Shown here piece by piece: positions 12,449 through 41,729 of a stretch of 64,000 nt of DNA. A program made the position numbers and the translations under genes. The notes beneath the pieces are model-generated. The model was not told the origin of the DNA, made no database searches, and was given only the letters and a program-made list of their open reading frames with translations. The number at the start of each line of letters is the position of its first letter. Position 1 is the stretch's first letter. This DNA is from Escherichia coli (GTDB taxonomy: Bacteria > Pseudomonadota > Gammaproteobacteria > Enterobacterales > Enterobacteriaceae), in assembly GCF_016026235.1 (NCBI RefSeq), contig NZ_CP065613.1. One strand, given 5' to 3'.

Positions 12449-14683
12449 ATGGTTGCGGTAAGAAGTGCACATATCAATAAGGCTGGTGAATTTGATCCGG
12501 AAAAATGGATCGCAAGTCTGGGTATTACCAGCCAGAAGTCGTGTGAGTGCTTAGCCGAAACCTGGGCGTATTGTCTGCAACAGACGCAGGGGCATCCGGA
12601 TGCCAGTCTGTTATTGTGGCGTGGTGTTGAGATGGTGGAGATCCTCTCGACATTAAGTATGGACATTGACACGCTGCGGGCGGCGCTGCTGTTCCCTCTG
12701 GCTGATGCCAACGTAGTCAGCGAAGATGTGCTGCGTGAGAGCGTCGGTAAGTCGGTCGTTAACCTTATTCACGGCGTGCGTGATATGGCGGCGATCCGCC
12801 AGCTGAAAGCGACGCACACTGATTCTGTTTCCTCCGAACAGGTCGATAACGTTCGCCGGATGTTATTGGCGATGGTCGATGATTTTCGCTGCGTGGTCAT
12901 CAAACTGGCGGAGCGTATTGCTCATCTGCGCGAAGTAAAAGATGCGCCGGAAGATGAACGCGTACTGGCGGCAAAAGAGTGCACCAATATCTACGCGCCG
13001 TTGGCGAACCGTCTTGGGATTGGGCAACTGAAATGGGAGCTGGAAGATTACTGCTTCCGTTATCTCCACCCGACCGAATACAAACGCATCGCAAAACTGC
13101 TGCATGAACGCCGTCTCGACCGCGAACACTATATCGAAGAGTTTGTCGGCCATCTGCGCGCTGAGATGAAAGCTGAAGGCGTTAAAGCTGAAGTGTATGG
13201 TCGTCCGAAACACATCTACAGCATCTGGCGTAAAATGCAGAAAAAGAACCTCGCCTTTGATGAGCTGTTTGATGTGCGTGCGGTACGTATTGTCGCCGAG
13301 CGTTTACAGGATTGCTATGCCGCACTGGGGATAGTGCACACTCACTATCGCCACCTGCCGGATGAGTTTGACGATTATGTCGCTAACCCGAAACCAAACG
13401 GTTATCAGTCTATTCATACCGTGGTTCTGGGGCCAGGTGGCAAAACCGTTGAGATCCAAATCCGCACCAAACAGATGCATGAAGATGCAGAGTTGGGTGT
13501 TGCTGCGCACTGGAAATATAAAGAGGGCGCGGCAGCTGGCGGCGCACGTTCGGGACATGAAGACCGGATTGCCTGGCTGCGTAAACTGATTGCGTGGCAG
13601 GAAGAGATGGCTGATTCCGGCGAAATGCTCGACGAAGTACGCAGCCAGGTCTTTGACGACCGGGTGTATGTCTTTACGCCGAAAGGTGATGTCGTTGATT
13701 TGCCTGCGGGATCAACGCCGCTGGACTTCGCTTACCACATCCACAGTGATGTCGGACACCGCTGCATCGGGGCAAAAATTGGCGGGCGCATTGTGCCGTT
13801 CACCTACCAGCTGCAGATGGGCGACCAGATTGAAATTATCACCCAGAAACAGCCGAACCCCAGCCGTGACTGGTTAAACCCAAACCTCGGTTACGTCACA
13901 ACCAGCCGTGGGCGTTCGAAAATTCACGCCTGGTTCCGTAAACAGGACCGTGACAAAAACATTCTGGCTGGGCGGCAAATCCTTGACGACGAGCTGGAAC
14001 ATCTGGGGATCAGCCTGAAAGAAGCAGAAAAACATCTGCTGCCGCGTTACAACTTTAATGATGTCGACGAGTTGCTGGCGGCGATTGGTGGCGGGGATAT
14101 CCGTCTCAATCAGATGGTGAACTTCCTGCAATCGCAATTTAATAAGCCGAGTGCCGAAGAGCAGGACGCCGCCGCGCTGAAGCAACTTCAGCAAAAAAGC
14201 TACACGCCGCAAAACCGCAGTAAAGATAACGGTCGCGTGGTAGTCGAAGGTGTTGGCAACCTGATGCACCACATCGCGCGCTGCTGCCAGCCGATTCCTG
14301 GAGATGAGATTGTCGGCTTCATTACCCAGGGGCGCGGTATTTCAGTACACCGCGCCGATTGCGAACAACTGGCGGAACTGCGCTCCCATGCGCCAGAACG
14401 CATTGTTGACGCGGTATGGGGTGAGAGCTACTCCGCCGGATATTCGCTGGTGGTCCGCGTGGTGGCTAATGATCGTAGTGGGTTGTTACGTGATATCACG
14501 ACCATTCTCGCCAACGAGAAGGTGAACGTGCTTGGCGTTGCCAGCCGTAGCGACACCAAACAGCAACTGGCAACCATCGACATGACCATTGAGATTTACA
14601 ACCTGCAGGTGCTGGGCCGCGTGCTGGGTAAACTCAACCAGGTGCCGGATGTTATCGACGCGCGTCGGTTGCACGGGAGTTAG
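12449..14683 (+). CDS. relA: GTP pyrophosphokinase RelA, (p)ppGpp synthetase I
   Basis: 744-aa ORF MVAVRSAHINKAGEFDPEKWIASLGITSQ..., matches RelA. Confidence 0.95.
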   Translation: MVAVRSAHINKAGEFDPEKWIASLGITSQKSCECLAETWAYCLQQTQGHPDASLLLWRGVEMVEILSTLSMDIDTLRAALLFPLADANVVSEDVLRESVGKSVVNLIHGVRDMAAIRQLKATHTDSVSSEQVDNVRRMLLAMVDDFRCVVIKLAERIAHLREVKDAPEDERVLAAKECTNIYAPLANRLGIGQLKWELEDYCFRYLHPTEYKRIAKLLHERRLDREHYIEEFVGHLRAEMKAEGVKAEVYGRPKHIYSIWRKMQKKNLAFDELFDVRAVRIVAERLQDCYAALGIVHTHYRHLPDEFDDYVANPKPNGYQSIHTVVLGPGGKTVEIQIRTKQMHEDAELGVAAHWKYKEGAAAGGARSGHEDRIAWLRKLIAWQEEMADSGEMLDEVRSQVFDDRVYVFTPKGDVVDLPAGSTPLDFAYHIHSDVGHRCIGAKIGGRIVPFTYQLQMGDQIEIITQKQPNPSRDWLNPNLGYVTTSRGRSKIHAWFRKQDRDKNILAGRQILDDELEHLGISLKEAEKHLLPRYNFNDVDELLAAIGGGDIRLNQMVNFLQSQFNKPSAEEQDAAALKQLQQKSYTPQNRSKDNGRVVVEGVGNLMHHIARCCQPIPGDEIVGFITQGRGISVHRADCEQLAELRSHAPERIVDAVWGESYSAGYSLVVRVVANDRSGLLRDITTILANEKVNVLGVASRSDTKQQLATIDMTIEIYNLQVLGRVLGKLNQVPDVIDARRLHGS

Positions 14684-18143: not shown

Positions 18144-19457
<1,314 letters not shown>

Positions 19458-19482
19458 GACTGACTTTATCTGATTTAAAAAT

Positions 19483-19507
19483 GCCAGCCTCCGGGCTGGC
19501 ATTTTTT
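19483..19507 (+). terminator. Rho-independent terminator after eno
   Basis: Hairpin GCCAGCCTCCGGGCTGGC followed by ATTTTTT. Confidence 0.8.
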
Positions 19508-19516
19508 ATGGTTGAG

Positions 19517-20422
19517 TTACCAGCGGCCGGATGCGCCGCCACCTCCAGAAGAACCGCCACCGCCGCTAAATCCGCCGCCACTTGAGCCTCCACCGGAAGA
19601 GGATGAAGAAGAACCTTTTCTTGAAGCTCTTTCTTTACTGAGTTTTTTGTATTTGGCGCGTAGCTTTTTATTGACGATAAGCCAAAAAATAACCAGTGGT
19701 ACGATCGCAAAAGGCGTTAACATACCGCAGGCAACGATTAAATTGGTCCATGGTCCTGGCTCGGCAACATAGAGGAATACCATCCCGTAAATGGCGCCAG
19801 TGAGAGTGATCTAGGGTAAATTCGACGGATCGGTAAAAACAATAAAATATGAAAGTACCGCCAGCAATATAATTACAGCAAGCGATAATGGAATAGGGGG
19901 ATTGATACTGTAATAATCCCCCCTGTCTTCCGGTAATTCACCATTTAACAGAAGCGCGCCGATATTTTCGCTTGCCAGTGTTAATCCACCCATCAGGTCA
20001 TCACTTTTGAAGGCAGGGATCAATATATCCCTGATAATCTTCGCCGCTTGCAGGTCGGTAACCACCCCTTCCAGCCCGTAGCCAACCTCAATACGAACAG
20101 CATGATCCTCCTAGGCAACCAGAAGTAAAATACCATCGTTTCTCTGCTTATCTCCCAGTTTCCAGCTATCAAAAACCCTTGTAGCATATTGTTCAATGGA
20201 ATCGTCTCCGGTGGACGGCACTACTAATACAGCGACCTGCGCCCGTGTTTTATGTGTAATATCCTGCAGTTGCTGTGTCAGTGATTGTTGTTCAGAAGTG
20301 CTTAACGTACCAGTAATATCGGTCACCTGTTGGCGCAGTTCCGGCACAGCAATTTGCTGGGCAAGCCCAGGAAGGCACCACAAAGTGAATAGAATAAAGA
20401 TTAAGCGCATTACGATCACCAA
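19517..20422 (-). pseudogene. TPM-domain (YgcG/UPF0603-like) protein, third tandem paralog, disrupted
   Basis: Three consecutive minus-strand ORFs (20111-20422, 19811-20065, 19517-19783) together align to the full-length paralogs upstream. In-frame TAG at 20111-20113 where the paralogs have Trp (LLLVA-W-QDH), plus a frame change near 19784-19815. C-terminus retains the GGGSSGGGFSGGGGSSGGGGASGRW tail. Confidence 0.75.
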
Positions 20423-21564
20423 CGGCCGGATGAACCGCCGCCTCCTGAAGAACCGCCACCACCGCGGAAAGAATTTCTCGACGAAGAGCGAGAATGAGCA
20501 TTACGATTCCCCGTTTTCCTGTTGCTTTTTTCTCCTGACCCCAGCTTAAGATTGCCAGTAAATTTGGCCACAATGATCAGCAGAACGATGCCAGCAATGG
20601 TTATTGGGCCGATAAAATGATCAATTAACCCAATAATTGTTGAGATGAATGCAATATCTTTATTACTGGCGAACACCAGGCACCATCCCACAATAATTAT
20701 CAGCATCACGACAAACAATGAATTTCGTCCTGATTCACGAACCTGCGGAGTCTTCTTTTGTTTTTTCACTTTAGCGTTTTTATTTTTTGGGGGCAGCATC
20801 ATAGGAAATACGCGGCACATATTAAAAACTACCGCGAGACGCTGCTTGCAGGTTGTTGCTAACAATAAACTAAAACAAACGACCGATACCCGCCGAATGA
20901 TGACATCGTCCTGAAAGGAGAAAAACCAGACCATAGGGGTAATCATCGATATCATCCATATGCCACGCCGTGGGCGGCTGGCAAATCGCCAGAGGACAAC
21001 GATGGCAACGATCATCAGCAGTGTCCAGGCAAGACATGGCAGCGAACGTTGCGGATTAGCAAACAGATGATTGGCTAAAGCATCCAAAGGGCTAAGGTTC
21101 GCTTTGATATGGGTAAACTGTGCGATGCTTTCAATTCCGCCCGTTAATCCAGCAAAGAGATTGTTTTTTTCGAATTCTGGCTGCATATGGTAACGAACAA
21201 TTTGCGCAGCTTGTTCCGGCGGCAACATCTCTTCCAGTCCATGTCCAATCTTCATTGACGCCAGCCCTTCCGGCCAAACGACGAGAATTAAGATACCTTC
21301 GCCATATCGCTTCTCTCCAACGGGTTTCCAGTGATATACCCCGTAGCTCTGCGAGGCTGCAAGTTTAATGTTTTTGCCCCCTGTTGTCGGCGTAACCAAC
21401 ACGGCCACCTGGAAGTGGTTTTGCTGCTCGAGAGTCTGTAATTGTTGATTTAAAGCACTTTGTTCTTCTGTCGTTAATGTCCCGGTTAAGTCAGTCACTG
21501 AAGGCAATCGTTCAGCGAATACCTGAAAACCGCATAGCATCAGAAGTAAGAGAAAAATACGCAT
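20416..21564 (-). CDS. TPM-domain membrane protein, second tandem paralog, 382 aa
   Basis: N-terminal signal-like segment, TPM-like core (LTGTLTTEEQSALNQQLQTLEQQNHFQVAVLV), several hydrophobic segments, Gly/Ser-rich tail ...FRGGGGSSGGGGSSGRW. Confidence 0.75.
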   Translation of the reverse strand: MRIFLLLLMLCGFQVFAERLPSVTDLTGTLTTEEQSALNQQLQTLEQQNHFQVAVLVTPTTGGKNIKLAASQSYGVYHWKPVGEKRYGEGILILVVWPEGLASMKIGHGLEEMLPPEQAAQIVRYHMQPEFEKNNLFAGLTGGIESIAQFTHIKANLSPLDALANHLFANPQRSLPCLAWTLLMIVAIVVLWRFASRPRRGIWMISMITPMVWFFSFQDDVIIRRVSVVCFSLLLATTCKQRLAVVFNMCRVFPMMLPPKNKNAKVKKQKKTPQVRESGRNSLFVVMLIIIVGWCLVFASNKDIAFISTIIGLIDHFIGPITIAGIVLLIIVAKFTGNLKLGSGEKSNRKTGNRNAHSRSSSRNSFRGGGGSSGGGGSSGRW

Positions 21565-21578
21565 ATCAATTCCTTTTG

Positions 21579-22472
21579 TTACCAGCGCCCGGAAGCGCCA
21601 CCGCCACCAGATGAACCGCCACCACCGCTAAAATTGTCATTGTCGAATGAAGAGGATGACGATGATGAATAGTGGGAGGAAGAATTGCTTCTTGTATGGC
21701 GTGATGGCTGGTTGGCATCACGCATCGAATCTCGAACCTTTTTGCCGAAGGGGGTAAAAGCGATGGCAACTGCCAGGAACGGTGTGGCGAAGCAGAGTAA
21801 TGTTGCGAGTACTCCCCAGCTTCCGCTGAAACCTGCTATAGGTAAAACAAAGGCCAGTACAATAGCTGCGAAACAAATTACTCCCAGCGTTTTGATATAT
21901 CCTCTGGCAGAAATAAACGTCAGTACTATCGCCCAGACTAACAAAGCCCACCAACCGCTAAAGGGTAAAGGGTGATCGGTCGGTGTTATCGTTGCTAAAT
22001 TATTCCCCGTCAGACGACTTTCAAGATCGCTGATCCCCTTTTGTAAACCGACAGCAAGATCGCCCTTTTTAAACGCTGGAATAATACTGTTGCGTATAAT
22101 TTGCCCGGACTGCGCATCCGTAATAATACCTTCCAGTCCGTAACCAATTTCAATACGCACGGTATGATCCTGCCAGGCGACTAACAGTAGAACGCCATCA
22201 TCGCGGTCTTTATCACCCGGTTTCCAGCTATCGAATACCCGCGTTGCGTACTGCTCGATGCTTTCATCGCCTGTTGTTTCAACCACTAACACGACCAACT
22301 GTGCGTGGTTTTTTTGCGTCAGGGCTTTGATCTGGTTGGTCAGGGTGTTTACTTCGCTATTTGTTAATGTGCCGGTTAAGTCATTCACATACCTGGGTGA
22401 TTCAGGTACTGGAATTTGTGTGGCAAACACAGATGAACAGAAGAAAGCCATAAGGAAGATAAAATTTCGCAT
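21579..22472 (-). CDS. TPM-domain protein, first tandem paralog, YgcG-like
   Basis: Starts MRNFIFLMAFFCSSVFATQIPVPESPRYVNDLTGTLTNSEV... (297 aa from the ATG preceded by GGGGAAG), ends ...FSGGGGSSGGGGASGRW. Which paralog corresponds to K-12 ygcG is uncertain. Confidence 0.75.
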   Translation of the reverse strand: MRNFIFLMAFFCSSVFATQIPVPESPRYVNDLTGTLTNSEVNTLTNQIKALTQKNHAQLVVLVVETTGDESIEQYATRVFDSWKPGDKDRDDGVLLLVAWQDHTVRIEIGYGLEGIITDAQSGQIIRNSIIPAFKKGDLAVGLQKGISDLESRLTGNNLATITPTDHPLPFSGWWALLVWAIVLTFISARGYIKTLGVICFAAIVLAFVLPIAGFSGSWGVLATLLCFATPFLAVAIAFTPFGKKVRDSMRDANQPSRHTRSNSSSHYSSSSSSSFDNDNFSGGGGSSGGGGASGRW

Positions 22473-22485
22473 AGAACTTCCCCGC

Positions 22486-23088
22486 TTAATGAGCACTAGC
22501 ATTCTGGCTAAAATCTATTGTTGGTGCTTTACTCACAGCGGCGACATCATCCGGCAAATAATTTTTCTTTGGTGTGTAATCCATGACCTTTGCGGTTAAC
22601 ACAGCGGGGAATTTGCGGATAGTGACATTATATTGTTCAATGGCTTTAATATATCTTCCTCGCGCAACGGCAATCCGATTTTCACTTCCTTCAAGCTGTA
22701 CCATTAAATTTTGATAGAGTTCCTGAGATTTTAACTCAGGGTAACGCTCACTAATTATCGTTAACTGACCGAGAGTGCGAGTCACCTGCGCTTGAGCCTG
22801 TTGCCAGGCTTGTAATTTTTGTTCATCTCCCGGAGTTTGCTGAAGATCGCTACTGGCGCGATTAGCCTGGCTACGAGCCAATGTTACGGCTTCCAGTACA
22901 TCTCGTTCATGGCTGGAATAACCTTTAATACTGGCGACAAGATTAGGAATAAGATAGGCGCGACGTTGATATTGATTCAATACCTCAGACCAGGAGGCGT
23001 TAACCTGCTCATCATAGGTTTGAATATCGTTATATCCACAGCCTGATAAATTGAAAATAAATATAATTACGATGAATATTCTGAGCAT
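22486..23088 (-). CDS. LemA family protein
   Basis: 200-aa ORF with N-terminal hydrophobic segment and LemA-like core (RRAYLIPNLVASIKGYSSHERDVLEAVTLARSQA...RYPELKSQELYQNLMVQLEGSENRIAVARGRY); first gene of an apparent operon with the TPM genes, divergent from queE. Confidence 0.7.
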   Translation of the reverse strand: MLRIFIVIIFIFNLSGCGYNDIQTYDEQVNASWSEVLNQYQRRAYLIPNLVASIKGYSSHERDVLEAVTLARSQANRASSDLQQTPGDEQKLQAWQQAQAQVTRTLGQLTIISERYPELKSQELYQNLMVQLEGSENRIAVARGRYIKAIEQYNVTIRKFPAVLTAKVMDYTPKKNYLPDDVAAVSKAPTIDFSQNASAH

Positions 23089-23260
23089 GTTTAAATCCCT
23101 TTTAATTAATTCCTTAAAACATAATACTCTGCTTCATTTTATTCTTTATGATCTAATCCACTTTTTGCCATAAACCTGCCTGTAACAGAATGTTAATAAG
23201 ACATGATTGTTGTGGCAGGATCTGCAATAATTAACAATTATCCACTTCACAGAGAATGCT

Positions 23261-23932
23261 ATGCAGTACCCGATTAACGAGATGTTCCAGACCCTGCAAG
23301 GTGAGGGTTACTTTACCGGCGTCCCCGCCATTTTTATTCGTTTACAGGGATGCCCGGTTGGCTGTGCCTGGTGCGACACCAAACACACCTGGGAAAAGCT
23401 TGAGGATCGGGAAGTCTCCCTTTTCAGCATTCTGGCGAAGACCAAAGAGAGTGATAAGTGGGGGGCGGCGAGCAGTGAAGACTTGCTGGCTGTCATTGGT
23501 CGCCAGGGATATACCGCGCGGCATGTGGTGATTACGGGTGGTGAGCCTTGCATTCATGATTTGCTGCCACTGACTGACCTGCTCGAAAAGAACGGTTTTA
23601 GCTGCCAGATCGAAACCAGTGGTACTCATGAAGTACGCTGTACACCGAATACCTGGGTTACCGTATCGCCAAAGCTGAACATGCGCGGCGGCTATGAAGT
23701 GTTGTCACAGGCACTGGAGCGAGCCAACGAAATCAAGCATCCAGTGGGACGCGTACGTGATATTGAAGCACTGGATGAACTTTTGGCGACGCTGACCGAT
23801 GATAAACCGCGAGTCATTGCACTGCAGCCGATTAGCCAAAAGGATGATGCCACACGTTTGTGCATTGAAACCTGCATTGCGCGTAATTGGCGTTTGTCGA
23901 TGCAAACCCATAAATATTTAAATATTGCCTGA
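23261..23932 (+). CDS. queE: 7-carboxy-7-deazaguanine synthase QueE (YgcF), radical SAM
   Basis: 223-aa ORF MQYPINEMFQTLQGEGYFTGVPAIFIRLQGCPVGCAWCDTKH... Confidence 0.92.
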   Translation: MQYPINEMFQTLQGEGYFTGVPAIFIRLQGCPVGCAWCDTKHTWEKLEDREVSLFSILAKTKESDKWGAASSEDLLAVIGRQGYTARHVVITGGEPCIHDLLPLTDLLEKNGFSCQIETSGTHEVRCTPNTWVTVSPKLNMRGGYEVLSQALERANEIKHPVGRVRDIEALDELLATLTDDKPRVIALQPISQKDDATRLCIETCIARNWRLSMQTHKYLNIA

Positions 23933-23939
23933 TTAAACA

Positions 23940-24270
23940 TTTATAAGCGTTATAAATGGGGGGAACCTGTAAAGACTTCTACTCATTTATATTCTTTGTC
24001 GCCTCTGAAAAAGCTCCATTTTGCCCATCCTGGACTAATCATTATCATTCTCTACAAATTCTGTGGCGTTAATTTTTTGTTGGAGTGAAAATTATTGCGG
24101 TAAAGTTTGGTAGATTTTAGTTTGTATAGAATTATTTTAAATATTTACCTTTTTAATCAATGAGTTAAGTGCTCTTTAACATAATGGATGTGTTGTTTGT
24201 GTGATACTGTAAAGTTGGTAGATTGTGACTGGCTTAAAAAATCATTAATTAATAATAGGTTATGTTTAGA
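23940..24270 (+). promoter_or_regulatory. AT-rich CRISPR leader
   Basis: AT-rich non-coding stretch ending ...CTGGCTTAAAAAATCATTAATTAATAATAGGTTATGTTTAGA directly abutting the first repeat. Confidence 0.65.
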
Positions 24271-24521
24271 GAGTTCCCCGCGCCAGCGGGGATAAACCGA
24301 TGACAAAAATTTGCAGGTGCTGGCAGAGGCCGAGTTCCCCGCGCCAGCGGGGATAAACCGTCAGGTGGGATGGTCAGCGCGAAACACACGCCGAGTTCCC
24401 CGCGCCAGCGGGGATAAACCGAGCGCGCAGTTATCAGCCGCGACAACATGAAAGAGTTCCCCGCGCCAGCGGGGATAAACCGCTCATATACGTTACAGCG
24501 TCGGAAATGGAGGCGAGTTCC

Positions 24522-39542: not shown

Positions 39543-40303
39543 CCTGAGGAATCCCCAGAAAACAAGACAGGCATAGTGAGATGTGATCTAATTGATTGTG
39601 CTAACAATTTCAAGGAGATCACCACTATGCCTGCACGTTCATTATGCCAAAATTTCCTTAACAATATACTGGCCCCTTTGCATCTTTACCGTCAAAAATC
39701 ACTGATTGACGCAACTAATGCTGTAATAAATGGCGCTTCCCTCACACTTACCAGTATCGGGCGTCATTTAACCGGTACGGCATCAGTTAAAAACAAAATA
39801 AAGCGGGTGGATCGACTGTTGGGGAATCGACATTTGCAAAATGAGGTTTCCACCATTTTTCAGCGAATTACCCAAAAGATTACGCGGGGAATGTCTCGTG
39901 TTGTGATACTCATTGACTGGAGTGCTTATCATGCCTCTCGTTTTCAGCTTTTGCGGGCAAGCCTGGCATGTGACGGGCGTTCTTTACCGTTGATGAGTTG
40001 TGTCGTTCCATCATCACAGACAGCGAATGCAGATGTACATGAGCGTTTTCTGGAATCGCTTGCTGAGTGCTTTTCCCCCGGGACTGATGTCATTGTTATT
40101 ACAGATGCCGGTTTTCAGGGGCGATGGTTCCAACAGCTCCGCTCCCGTGGCTGGACCTATATTTGCCGGGTACTGGGCAATCATTATTACAATGTTGGTA
40201 ATGGCTGGGAAAAGGTGTCGGACTCAGGCACAAAAGCATCAACGACAGCAATTTATTTAGGTGAAGGCCTGCTGGGTCGAGATAAAAATGCACAACATGA
40301 AGG
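39543..40303 (+). mobile_element. IS10-like insertion sequence (copy 3), left 761 bp only, truncated by IS4
   Basis: Begins CCTGAGGAATCCCCAGAAAACAAGACAGG 22 bp after the Hok-like stop; transposase frame (MPARSL... from 39627) is identical to copy 1 through ...KNAQHEG, then IS4 begins at 40304. Confidence 0.85.
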
Positions 40304-41729
40304 TAATGCCGATCAGTTAAGGATCAGTTGACCGATCCAGTGGCTGTGTAAGAATCCGGAAACGCTCACTTGTTTCCGGATTTTTTTATGCACATTGGAC
40401 AGGCTCTTGATCTGGTATCCCGTTACGATTCTCTGCGTAACCCACTGACTTCTCTGGGGGATTACCTCGACCCCGAACTCATCTCTCGTTGCCTTGCCGA
40501 ATCAGGTACTGTAACGCTACGCAAGCGCCGTCTTCCCCTCGAAATGATGGTCTGGTGTATTGTTGGCATGGCGCTTGAGCGTAAAGAACCTCTTCACCAG
40601 ATTGTGAATCGCCTGGACATCATGCTGCCGGGCAATCGCCCCTTCGTTGCCCCCAGTGCCGTTATTCAGGCCCGCCAGCGCCTGGGAAGTGAGGCTGTCC
40701 GCCGCGTGTTCACGAAAACAGCGCAGCTCTGGCATAACGCCACGCCGCATCCGCACTGGTGCGGCCTGACCCTGCTGGCCATCGATGGTGTGTTCTGGCG
40801 CACACCGGATACACCAGAGAACGATGCAGCCTTCCCCCGCCAGACACATGCCGGGAACCCGGCGCTCTACCCGCAGGTCAAAATGGTCTGCCAGATGGAA
40901 CTGACCAGCCATCTGCTGACGGCTGCAGCCTTCGGCACGATGAAGAACAGCGAAAATGAGCTTGCTGAGCAACTTATAGAACAAACCGGCGATAACACTC
41001 TGACGTTAATGGATAAAGGTTATTACTCACTGGGACTGTTAAATGCCTGGAGCCTGGCGGGAGAACACCGCCACTGGATGATACCTCTCAGAAAGGGAGC
41101 GCAATATGAAGAGCTCAGAAAACTGGGTAAAGGCGATCATCTGGTGAAGCTGAAAACCAGCCCGCAGGCACGAAAAAAGTGGCCGGGACTGGGAAATGAA
41201 GTGACAGCCCGCCTGCTGACCGTGACGCGCAAAGGAAAAGTCTGCCATCTGCTGACGTCGATGACGGACGCCATGCGCTTCCCCGGAGGAGAAATGGCGG
41301 ATCTGTACAGTCATCGCTGGGAAATCGAACTGGGATACAGGGAGATAAAACAGACGATGCAACTGAGCAGGCTGACGCTGAGAAGTAAAAAGCCGGAGCT
41401 TGTGGAGCAAGAGCTGTGGGGTGTCTTACTGGCTTATAATCTGGTGAGATATCAGATGATTAAAATGGCGGAACATCTGAAAGGTTACTGGCCGAATCAA
41501 CTGAGTTTCTCAGAATCATGCGGAATGGTGATGAGAATGCTGATGACATTGCAGGGCGCTTCACCGGGACGTATACCGGAGCTGATGCGCGATCTTGCAA
41601 GTATGGGACAACTTGTGAAATTACCGACGAGAAGGGGAAGGGCCTTCCCGAGAGTGGTAAAGGAGAGGCCCTGGAAATACCCCACAGCCCCGAAAAAGAG
41701 CCAGTCAGTTGCTTAACTGACTGGCATTA
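40304..41729 (+). mobile_element. IS4, 1426 bp, complete, no target duplication
   Basis: Termini TAATGCCGATCAGTTAAGGATCAGTTGACCG ... CTTAACTGACTGGCATTA; length matches IS4 from memory. Left flank is IS10-like interior, right flank is lysS 3' intergenic; flanks are unrelated. Confidence 0.9.
40388..41716 (+). CDS. insG: IS4 transposase InsG
   Basis: [40 protein letters not shown]... about 442 aa. Confidence 0.9.

Follow-up and report, generated by a model that had tools for sequence, protein, structure and literature searches.

The gene next to eno in the stretch of Escherichia coli DNA analysed here (the whole 64-kb stretch is referred to as the window) belongs to a set of three TPM-domain paralogs, and its coding sequence is interrupted, which raises the questions of how many lesions it carries, by what kind of event they arose, and whether its loss was accidental, selected, or only apparent. 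The gene order in the window is queF-syd-CsrB-truC-gudPXD-barA-rlmD-relA-mazEFG-pyrG-eno, followed by an operon on the minus strand with the order lemA-TPM1-TPM2-TPM3, in which TPM3 is the last gene and convergent with eno; beyond the operon lie queE and then a CRISPR remnant and several IS elements. The features concerned are the following:

22486..23088, minus strand: intact LemA family gene (PF04011) of 200 aa that opens the operon
21579..22502, minus strand: intact TPM1 paralog of 297-307 aa, according to which start is taken
20416..21564, minus strand: TPM2 paralog, 382 aa, intact, of the same length as its orthologs
19517..20419, minus strand: TPM3, the eno-proximal TPM-domain (YgcG-like) gene of 300 codons, now a pseudogene by single-frame translation and comparison with an intact allele
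20111..20113, minus strand: amber 1, codon 103, TGG>TAG, in the middle of the TPM domain at a Trp that is invariant among the paralogs
19811..19813, minus strand: amber 2, in-frame TGG>TAG at codon 203, within the C-terminal half that spans the membrane
20111..20115, plus strand: former Dcm site, CCAGG in sister and outgroup, now CTAGG (inner C at 20112, C>T)
19811..19815, plus strand: former Dcm site, CCAGG in sister and outgroup, now CTAGG (inner C at 19812, C>T)

Translation of positions 20422..19517 on the minus strand in a single frame yields a continuous TPM-like protein with two stops inside it, starting from a GTG that overlaps the stop codon of TPM2 (GTGA). The three open reading frames into which TPM3 is now divided (20111-20422, 19811-20065, and 19517-19783) share a common frame, because the stops are spaced by 300 nt (20111-19811) and 294 nt (19811-19517). 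A preliminary description of this DNA had proposed a frameshift near 19784-19815, with the Gly-rich C-terminus read in another frame; frame arithmetic and translation contradict this, since the second lesion is the in-frame TAG at 19811-19813 and the tail of TPM3 continues in the same frame. The first lesion in that description, in turn, is confirmed: the minus-strand codon 20113..20111 reads TAG, the intact ortholog carries TGG at codon 103, and the corresponding Trp is invariant in an alignment of TPM1, TPM2, TPM3, and YgcG of E. coli K-12. The sequence LLLVA-W-QDH that had been given as the surroundings of this Trp in both full-length paralogs is exact for TPM1, while TPM2 has ILILVVWPEG. 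In the same alignment the position of Trp203 falls in a poorly conserved membrane region. Strain FDAARGOS_943 is annotated with an intact TPM3 ortholog, the 300-aa TPM domain protein WP_001362297.1, from which the window allele differs at 2 of 903 bases, both of them TGG>TAG changes. The restored protein matches Pfam PF04536 (TPM domain) over residues 32-155 (E=3.8e-38), next to a weak, below-cutoff match to the NCBIfam Psb32 family, and the 88-aa C-terminal open reading frame is identical to SDY_2995. Judged from its sequence, TPM3 is a true pseudogene with two in-frame ambers and zero frameshifts, and loss of function should be expected from either stop.

The two lesions have a property in common that the preliminary description overlooked, i.e., both are C>T hotspot changes at Dcm sites (CCWGG). 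Dcm is a cytosine-5 methyltransferase that recognizes CCWGG and methylates the inner C; deamination of 5-methylcytosine produces thymine, and the resulting T:G mismatch is normally corrected by Vsr very-short-patch repair. In the ancestral gene both Trp codons are preceded by CC (GCC-TGG at codon 103 and CCC-TGG at codon 203), so that the plus strand reads CCAGG at both sites, and each change is a transition of the inner (second) C of this motif, at 19812 and 20112 (+). The intact gene contains 4 CCWGG sites with 8 target cytosines, only 2 of which can yield a stop, and these are exactly the two that mutated; similarly, the mutated Trp codons are the 2 of 7 in TPM3 that lie within a CCWGG site. 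TPM3 has very probably become a pseudogene through two separate point mutations of the same mechanistic kind, Dcm-site deamination.

The polarity of the changes was determined against a sister, FDAARGOS_943, and two outgroup strains, A16 and 2824. FDAARGOS_943 is the closest complete genome (99.9% identity; the first 23 kb differ by 15 SNPs and 1 indel), and comparison with sister and outgroup places both TPM3 ambers as derived in the window lineage. The first block, with 34.7 kb compared, has 11 SNPs that arose in the window lineage, 3 of them at the inner C of CCWGG (1762, 19812, and 20112), and the second block (window 41730-64000) contains 5 derived SNPs with 1 at such a position (61882). 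Over both blocks, 4 of 16 derived SNPs thus fall on CCWGG inner cytosines, which make up 0.6% of positions; expressed per site, 1.2% of these cytosines have mutated as compared to 0.012% of other positions, a difference of approximately 98-fold. The change at 1762 is a third CCAGG>CTAGG Dcm-site change and is located in the CsrB sRNA (1587-1946, +; Rfam RF00018, 378 bits).

These numbers bear on the simplest alternative, in which TPM3 decayed at random and two ordinary substitutions, irrespective of motif, happened to be nonsense. The number of changes as such is not unusual, as 15 SNPs per 23 kb relative to the sister predicts about 0.6 in 903 nt. However, the probability that 2 of 2 random substitutions are both nonsense is only about 0.001-0.002, both are found on Dcm inner cytosines, and the same changes are encountered on many backbones (see below), which makes random decay very unlikely. 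When both stop-capable positions of TPM3 are assumed to mutate at 1.2% each, the probability of the double hit under neutrality is about 1.5e-4 for this one gene. Among the intact genes of the compared regions (n=48), 31 contain at least one Dcm position that can yield a stop and 21 contain at least two, and a single deamination would produce TAG at roughly one in four Dcm target cytosines of these 48 genes. Scaled to 4500 genes, and if neutral, this predicts a double Dcm stop in about 1 gene and one or more such stops in about 79. A double hit in a dispensable gene is therefore about as expected once per genome, and it is only at this genome-wide level that the TPM3 double stop is unremarkable, because approximately one such gene is expected per genome.

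The stops of TPM3 are not confined to the window. By exact look-up, the 102-aa product of a stop at codon 103 occurs in 46 collection blocks and the 202-aa product of a stop at codon 203 in 35, and among the cluster members listed from a 15-billion-protein collection these two are, of all truncated forms, those with the largest number of contigs. In the DNA of a number of these loci, W203* occurs alone (TGG/TAG, for codons 103 and 203) in L005-L009 and L032, W103* occurs alone (TAG/TGG) in L012-L016 and L018, and both stops are present in the window, L011, and L017; every case of either stop involves the identical CC-TGG>CC-TAG change. Backbones were compared over 3.4 kb with the two amber sites masked and were grouped at zero other differences. 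An O157-type backbone occurs as TGG/TGG (L003), TGG/TAG (L007), and TAG/TGG (L013), a second backbone as TGG/TAG (L006 and L008) and TAG/TGG (L014), and a third as TGG/TGG (L002) and TAG/TGG (L015 and L018). Because the states differ on otherwise identical backbones, W103* must have arisen independently at least 6 times and W203* at least 4 times. In contrast, the complete RefSeq E. coli genomes in which the respective segments occur (733 and 771) all lack both TAGs, every match there having exactly one central mismatch. The stops arise often and stay rare.

The same data address the reality of the two bases. If one or both TAGs had been miscalled and the gene were intact, the general existence of single-base errors would be the sole point in favor of such a sequencing or assembly error. 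The double-stop allele has been seen just on the window's own haplotype, but there it is repeated in assemblies of the lineage that are independent of the window, namely an NCBI draft (L011, GCA_000805835.1) and a Logan assembly of SRR17652784 (L017), both of which match the window without a single difference over 3.4 kb, the two TAGs included, and the double TAG is therefore not a sequencing error. The single-TAG alleles in many unrelated assemblies argue in the same direction, and an error has a negligible probability. With TGG in the sister, the suggestion in the preliminary description that the gene has genuinely decayed is upheld.

Read-through of the stops, which the preliminary description had considered for a suppressor background, would leave the gene functional if a suppressor tRNA or programmed recoding decoded the ambers so that a full-length protein is made. 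There is a superficial likeness to recoding in that both stops are TAG and both replace Trp. However, TAG is the derived state, TGG being present in the sister and in the 733 and 771 complete genomes, and TAG is conserved in no other lineage seen; efficient suppression would be needed twice; and the consistent use of TAG is fully explained by the CCAGG>CTAGG chemistry. Moreover, no tRNA gene was found within the 64-kb window. Functional read-through is thus very improbable.

More weight, albeit still little, can be given to the possibility that one clustered event or an engineering step (base editor or oligo recombineering) made both C>T changes at once. Both changes are on the plus strand, exactly 300 nt apart, in a gene that is otherwise unchanged, and no allele with just one of the two TAGs has turned up on the backbone of the window. 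Against this, each change occurs alone in many natural isolates, the same motif-specific spectrum is scattered over the window as fits a chronic process, and the lineage is represented by about 30 wild assemblies with linked lineage-specific variants; a joint origin of the two changes is accordingly considered unlikely. The variants concerned are the substitutions W20R in TruC, M298I and P359L in GudD, and A27V in LysS, which are found on 15-28 contigs and in about 30 collection blocks, and which identify the window lineage as a small, IS-rich group of wild E. coli; the records from which proteins with these variants come name E. coli as the species. The TruC change (truC codon 20, window 2375) is a lineage-derived T>C that replaces Trp20 of this tRNA pseudouridine synthase by Arg and is non-conservative. 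An engineered or mutagenised strain (base editor, MAGE, or NTG), which was considered since both changes in the gene are TGG>TAG, is rejected in view of these wild assemblies and the natural recurrence of the changes.

Two separate Dcm-site deaminations would have proceeded as follows. The Dcm sites at Trp103 and Trp203 would have been methylated at the inner C, the 5-methylcytosine would have deaminated to T, and mismatches that escaped Vsr repair would have turned CCAGG into CTAGG (dcm and vsr themselves lie outside the 64-kb window). CTAGG on the plus strand would then change TGG to TAG on the coding strand, and it is this CCAGG>CTAGG chemistry because of which a stop at a Dcm site is always amber. 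The first hit, in either order, would have removed TPM3 function, as a stop at codon 103 would halve the TPM domain and a stop at codon 203 would drop the membrane anchor and the Gly-rich tail. The second hit would have been neutral because the first had already removed function, and would subsequently have become fixed in the small, IS-rich lineage. No polar cost of the loss of TPM3 is to be expected, because no operon gene follows it and it is convergent on eno.

Dispensability of TPM3 is plausible in view of its distribution. Of 5,426 complete E. coli genomes, 782 (approximately 14%) have the full-length LemA/3xTPM cassette, and the approximately 86% of complete genomes without it have yqcG-ygcG instead. 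For example, K-12 MG1655 (L049) has yqcG and a single ygcG at the locus that corresponds to window 19400-23300, and this locus shares with the TPM3 region just the Gly-rich tail and the downstream region.

The absence of the cassette from so many genomes can also be taken to mean that inactivation of TPM3 was selected, with the Dcm hotspots as merely the route by which it occurred. The loss of the gene by IS1 insertion in Shigella dysenteriae Sd197 and 1617, and the low neutral probability of a double hit in this single gene, are likewise compatible with such adaptive loss. However, neither TAG is found among the complete region-carrying E. coli genomes (0 of 733 and 0 of 771); stops that are frequent but not spreading look like the outcome of mild purifying selection or drift, and not like that of a general advantage. 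Moreover, the second stop was not selectable once the first was present, and LemA, TPM1, and TPM2 are still intact in the window. Selection may have had a part in the first hit, but it need not be invoked and cannot account for the second, and adaptive loss as the overall explanation is improbable, if somewhat less so than a joint origin of the two changes.

The Dcm sites are not the only positions at which the window lineage has accumulated C>T changes. Three of the 11 SNPs in the first block (6765, 7790, and 33382) are derived C>T changes at the second C of CCGGG, a CCSGG sequence, and Dcm does not methylate CCSGG. This pattern was noticed post hoc in the first block and was tested on the second block, which had been held out. 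There, the inner C of CCSGG is the mutated base in 2 of the 5 derived SNPs (P=2e-4), namely 42269 and, within a minus-strand C[C]CGG, 61913, and for CCNGG inner cytosines together the hold-out gives P=9e-6. CCNGG inner cytosines account for 9 of 16 window-derived and 1 of 10 sister-derived SNPs (Fisher P=0.037), and CCSGG inner cytosines for 5 of 16 versus 0 of 10 (Fisher P=0.12). CCSGG sites mutate approximately 160-fold above background in the window lineage. CCSGG sites are not known to be protected by Vsr.

Methylases of the SsoII/Ecl18kI type are cytosine-5 methylases with CCNGG specificity (PMC6100179, PMC2760811). A plain CCGG (HpaII-type) methylase was considered as well for the CCGGG hits and is disfavoured, as one of the hold-out hits is the second C of CCCGG and all hits at the inner position of CCGG are within CCGGG. 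Searches with a probe sequence for M.SsoII returned genes that are 100% identical on ColE1-type plasmids of 4.2-5.8 kb in Shigella sonnei (4.2 kb), Klebsiella pneumoniae, and E. coli, and the protein is present in 2086 collection blocks. FDAARGOS_943 itself has a 5.8-kb plasmid (NZ_CP065617.1) on which the M.SsoII-type methylase gene adjoins a type II endonuclease gene, and at other loci with the same methylase the partner endonuclease has an EcoRII-C fold. A Dcm probe against plasmids gave at least 5000 EcoRII-like matches, and the small Salmonella plasmid H116, examined as a source of an SsoII-type system, proved not to carry one. No link of SsoII or CCNGG to S. dysenteriae was found in a literature search. 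The distribution of the changes suggests that an SsoII-type CCNGG methylase may have acted in the window lineage, a reading that is put forward tentatively because the sister, which is the plasmid carrier, shows 0 of 10 SNPs at CCSGG. That a mobile methylase of this type, on top of Dcm, has been the main source of point mutations in this IS-rich lineage is conceivable, at slightly less than an even chance in our estimate.

Other parts of the window bear marks of decay and rearrangement. IS copies are present at 24520-25837, 28480-29248, 31576-32883, and 39543-41729, and among them are ISEc60/IS4-like elements and an IS1 by which yqcE is interrupted. A rearrangement bounded by IS elements fuses the cysH-hok/sok region directly to lysS-prfB-recJ, and the cas genes and the iap side that are present in other E. 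coli are missing, with a CRISPR repeat remnant at approximately 24150-24450. Moreover, gudX (5355-6694, +) has a 1-nt deletion at approximately 6537 that causes a frameshift near its 3' end, whereas the gene is annotated as intact in the sister and in A16; by this comparison gudX is another lineage-specific pseudogene. In the sister, frameshifted rpoS and flhA (the latter annotated as formate hydrogenlyase activator) are located at 11471-12464 and 26413-28501 of the FDAARGOS_943 segment (L020).

The decay of TPM3 is ordinary in its mechanism, which is of the textbook kind, because both stops are at a classic bacterial mutation hotspot. The loss itself means one more dispensable gene gone from a decaying genome, and its value is illustrative and practical. 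When two in-frame ambers are found at Trp codons, a Dcm-hotspot signature should be suspected before recoding or suppression. Furthermore, recurrent identical ambers in E. coli and Shigella are expected homoplasies, because stop-capable Dcm positions are common (at least two in 21 of 48 genes), and such homoplasies can mislead phylogenies as well as scans for adaptive loss. What has a modest interest beyond this case, and more than the loss of TPM3, is the possible CCNGG-wide hotspot spectrum. If this spectrum is indeed due to an SsoII-type methylase, a small restriction-modification plasmid would measurably steer the substitution spectrum of a lineage, and methylation-driven mutation would add to gene decay (through Dcm in the case of the TPM3 stops); if confirmed genome-wide, it would be a clear case, in nature, of a host mutation spectrum reshaped by a mobile restriction-modification methylase.

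Compared with the TPM/YgcG proteins that are encoded beside LemA (PF04536, PF04011), TPM3 is alike in its TPM domain at residues 32-155, its membrane-spanning C-terminal half, its Gly/Ser-rich tail ending in GRW, and its position downstream of lemA. It differs from this family in that the window allele is truncated twice, and K-12 has at this locus a single, different paralog, YgcG.

At the level of the genome, the situation resembles the reductive evolution of Shigella and EIEC, as the window lineage and its sister are likewise IS-rich and have several inactivated genes, i.e., a frameshifted gudX and an IS1 in yqcE in the window, and frameshifts in rpoS and flhA in the sister. The rpoS and flhA lesions fit a decaying genome of the Shigella/EIEC kind, though the strain is labelled E. 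coli. S. dysenteriae Sd197 (L025, CP000034.1) and 1617 (L026) are approximately 1.2% divergent from the window and carry TGG at codon 203, and an assignment of the window to Sd197, which the match to SDY_2995 had suggested, was rejected on these grounds; they have lost TPM3 by insertion of IS1 near gene position 553, whereas in the window the gene was lost by point mutation. In S. dysenteriae type 1 the remainder of the LemA/TPM cluster has been shredded by IS elements. S. dysenteriae type 1 and the window lineage thus represent convergent loss in the LemA/TPM cassette.

The closest parallel to the stops themselves is found in the amber hotspots of lacI, which Coulondre, Miller, Farabaugh and Gilbert in 1978 reportedly located at CCAGG sites and attributed to 5-methylcytosine. 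These hotspots share with TPM3 the motif, the inner C, the CCAGG>CTAGG change that creates TAG, and the repeated occurrence at identical positions. In lacI, however, the gene is a laboratory reporter and the codon, CAG (Gln), is read from the motif strand itself, whereas in TPM3 the codon is TGG (Trp), the motif is on the opposite strand, and the genomes are wild; moreover, TPM3 differs from the lacI case in that two hits have been fixed in one gene. For natural populations, a raised mutation rate at Dcm sites is the topic of Cherry (2018, J Bacteriol 200:e00371-18, cited in PMC10710837 and PMC9241588), who reportedly found an excess of C>T changes at the targets of restriction-modification methylases too. 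The TPM3 locus and the window lineage are alike in this respect, with a surplus of C>T changes in natural isolates at cytosines that are methyltransferase targets.
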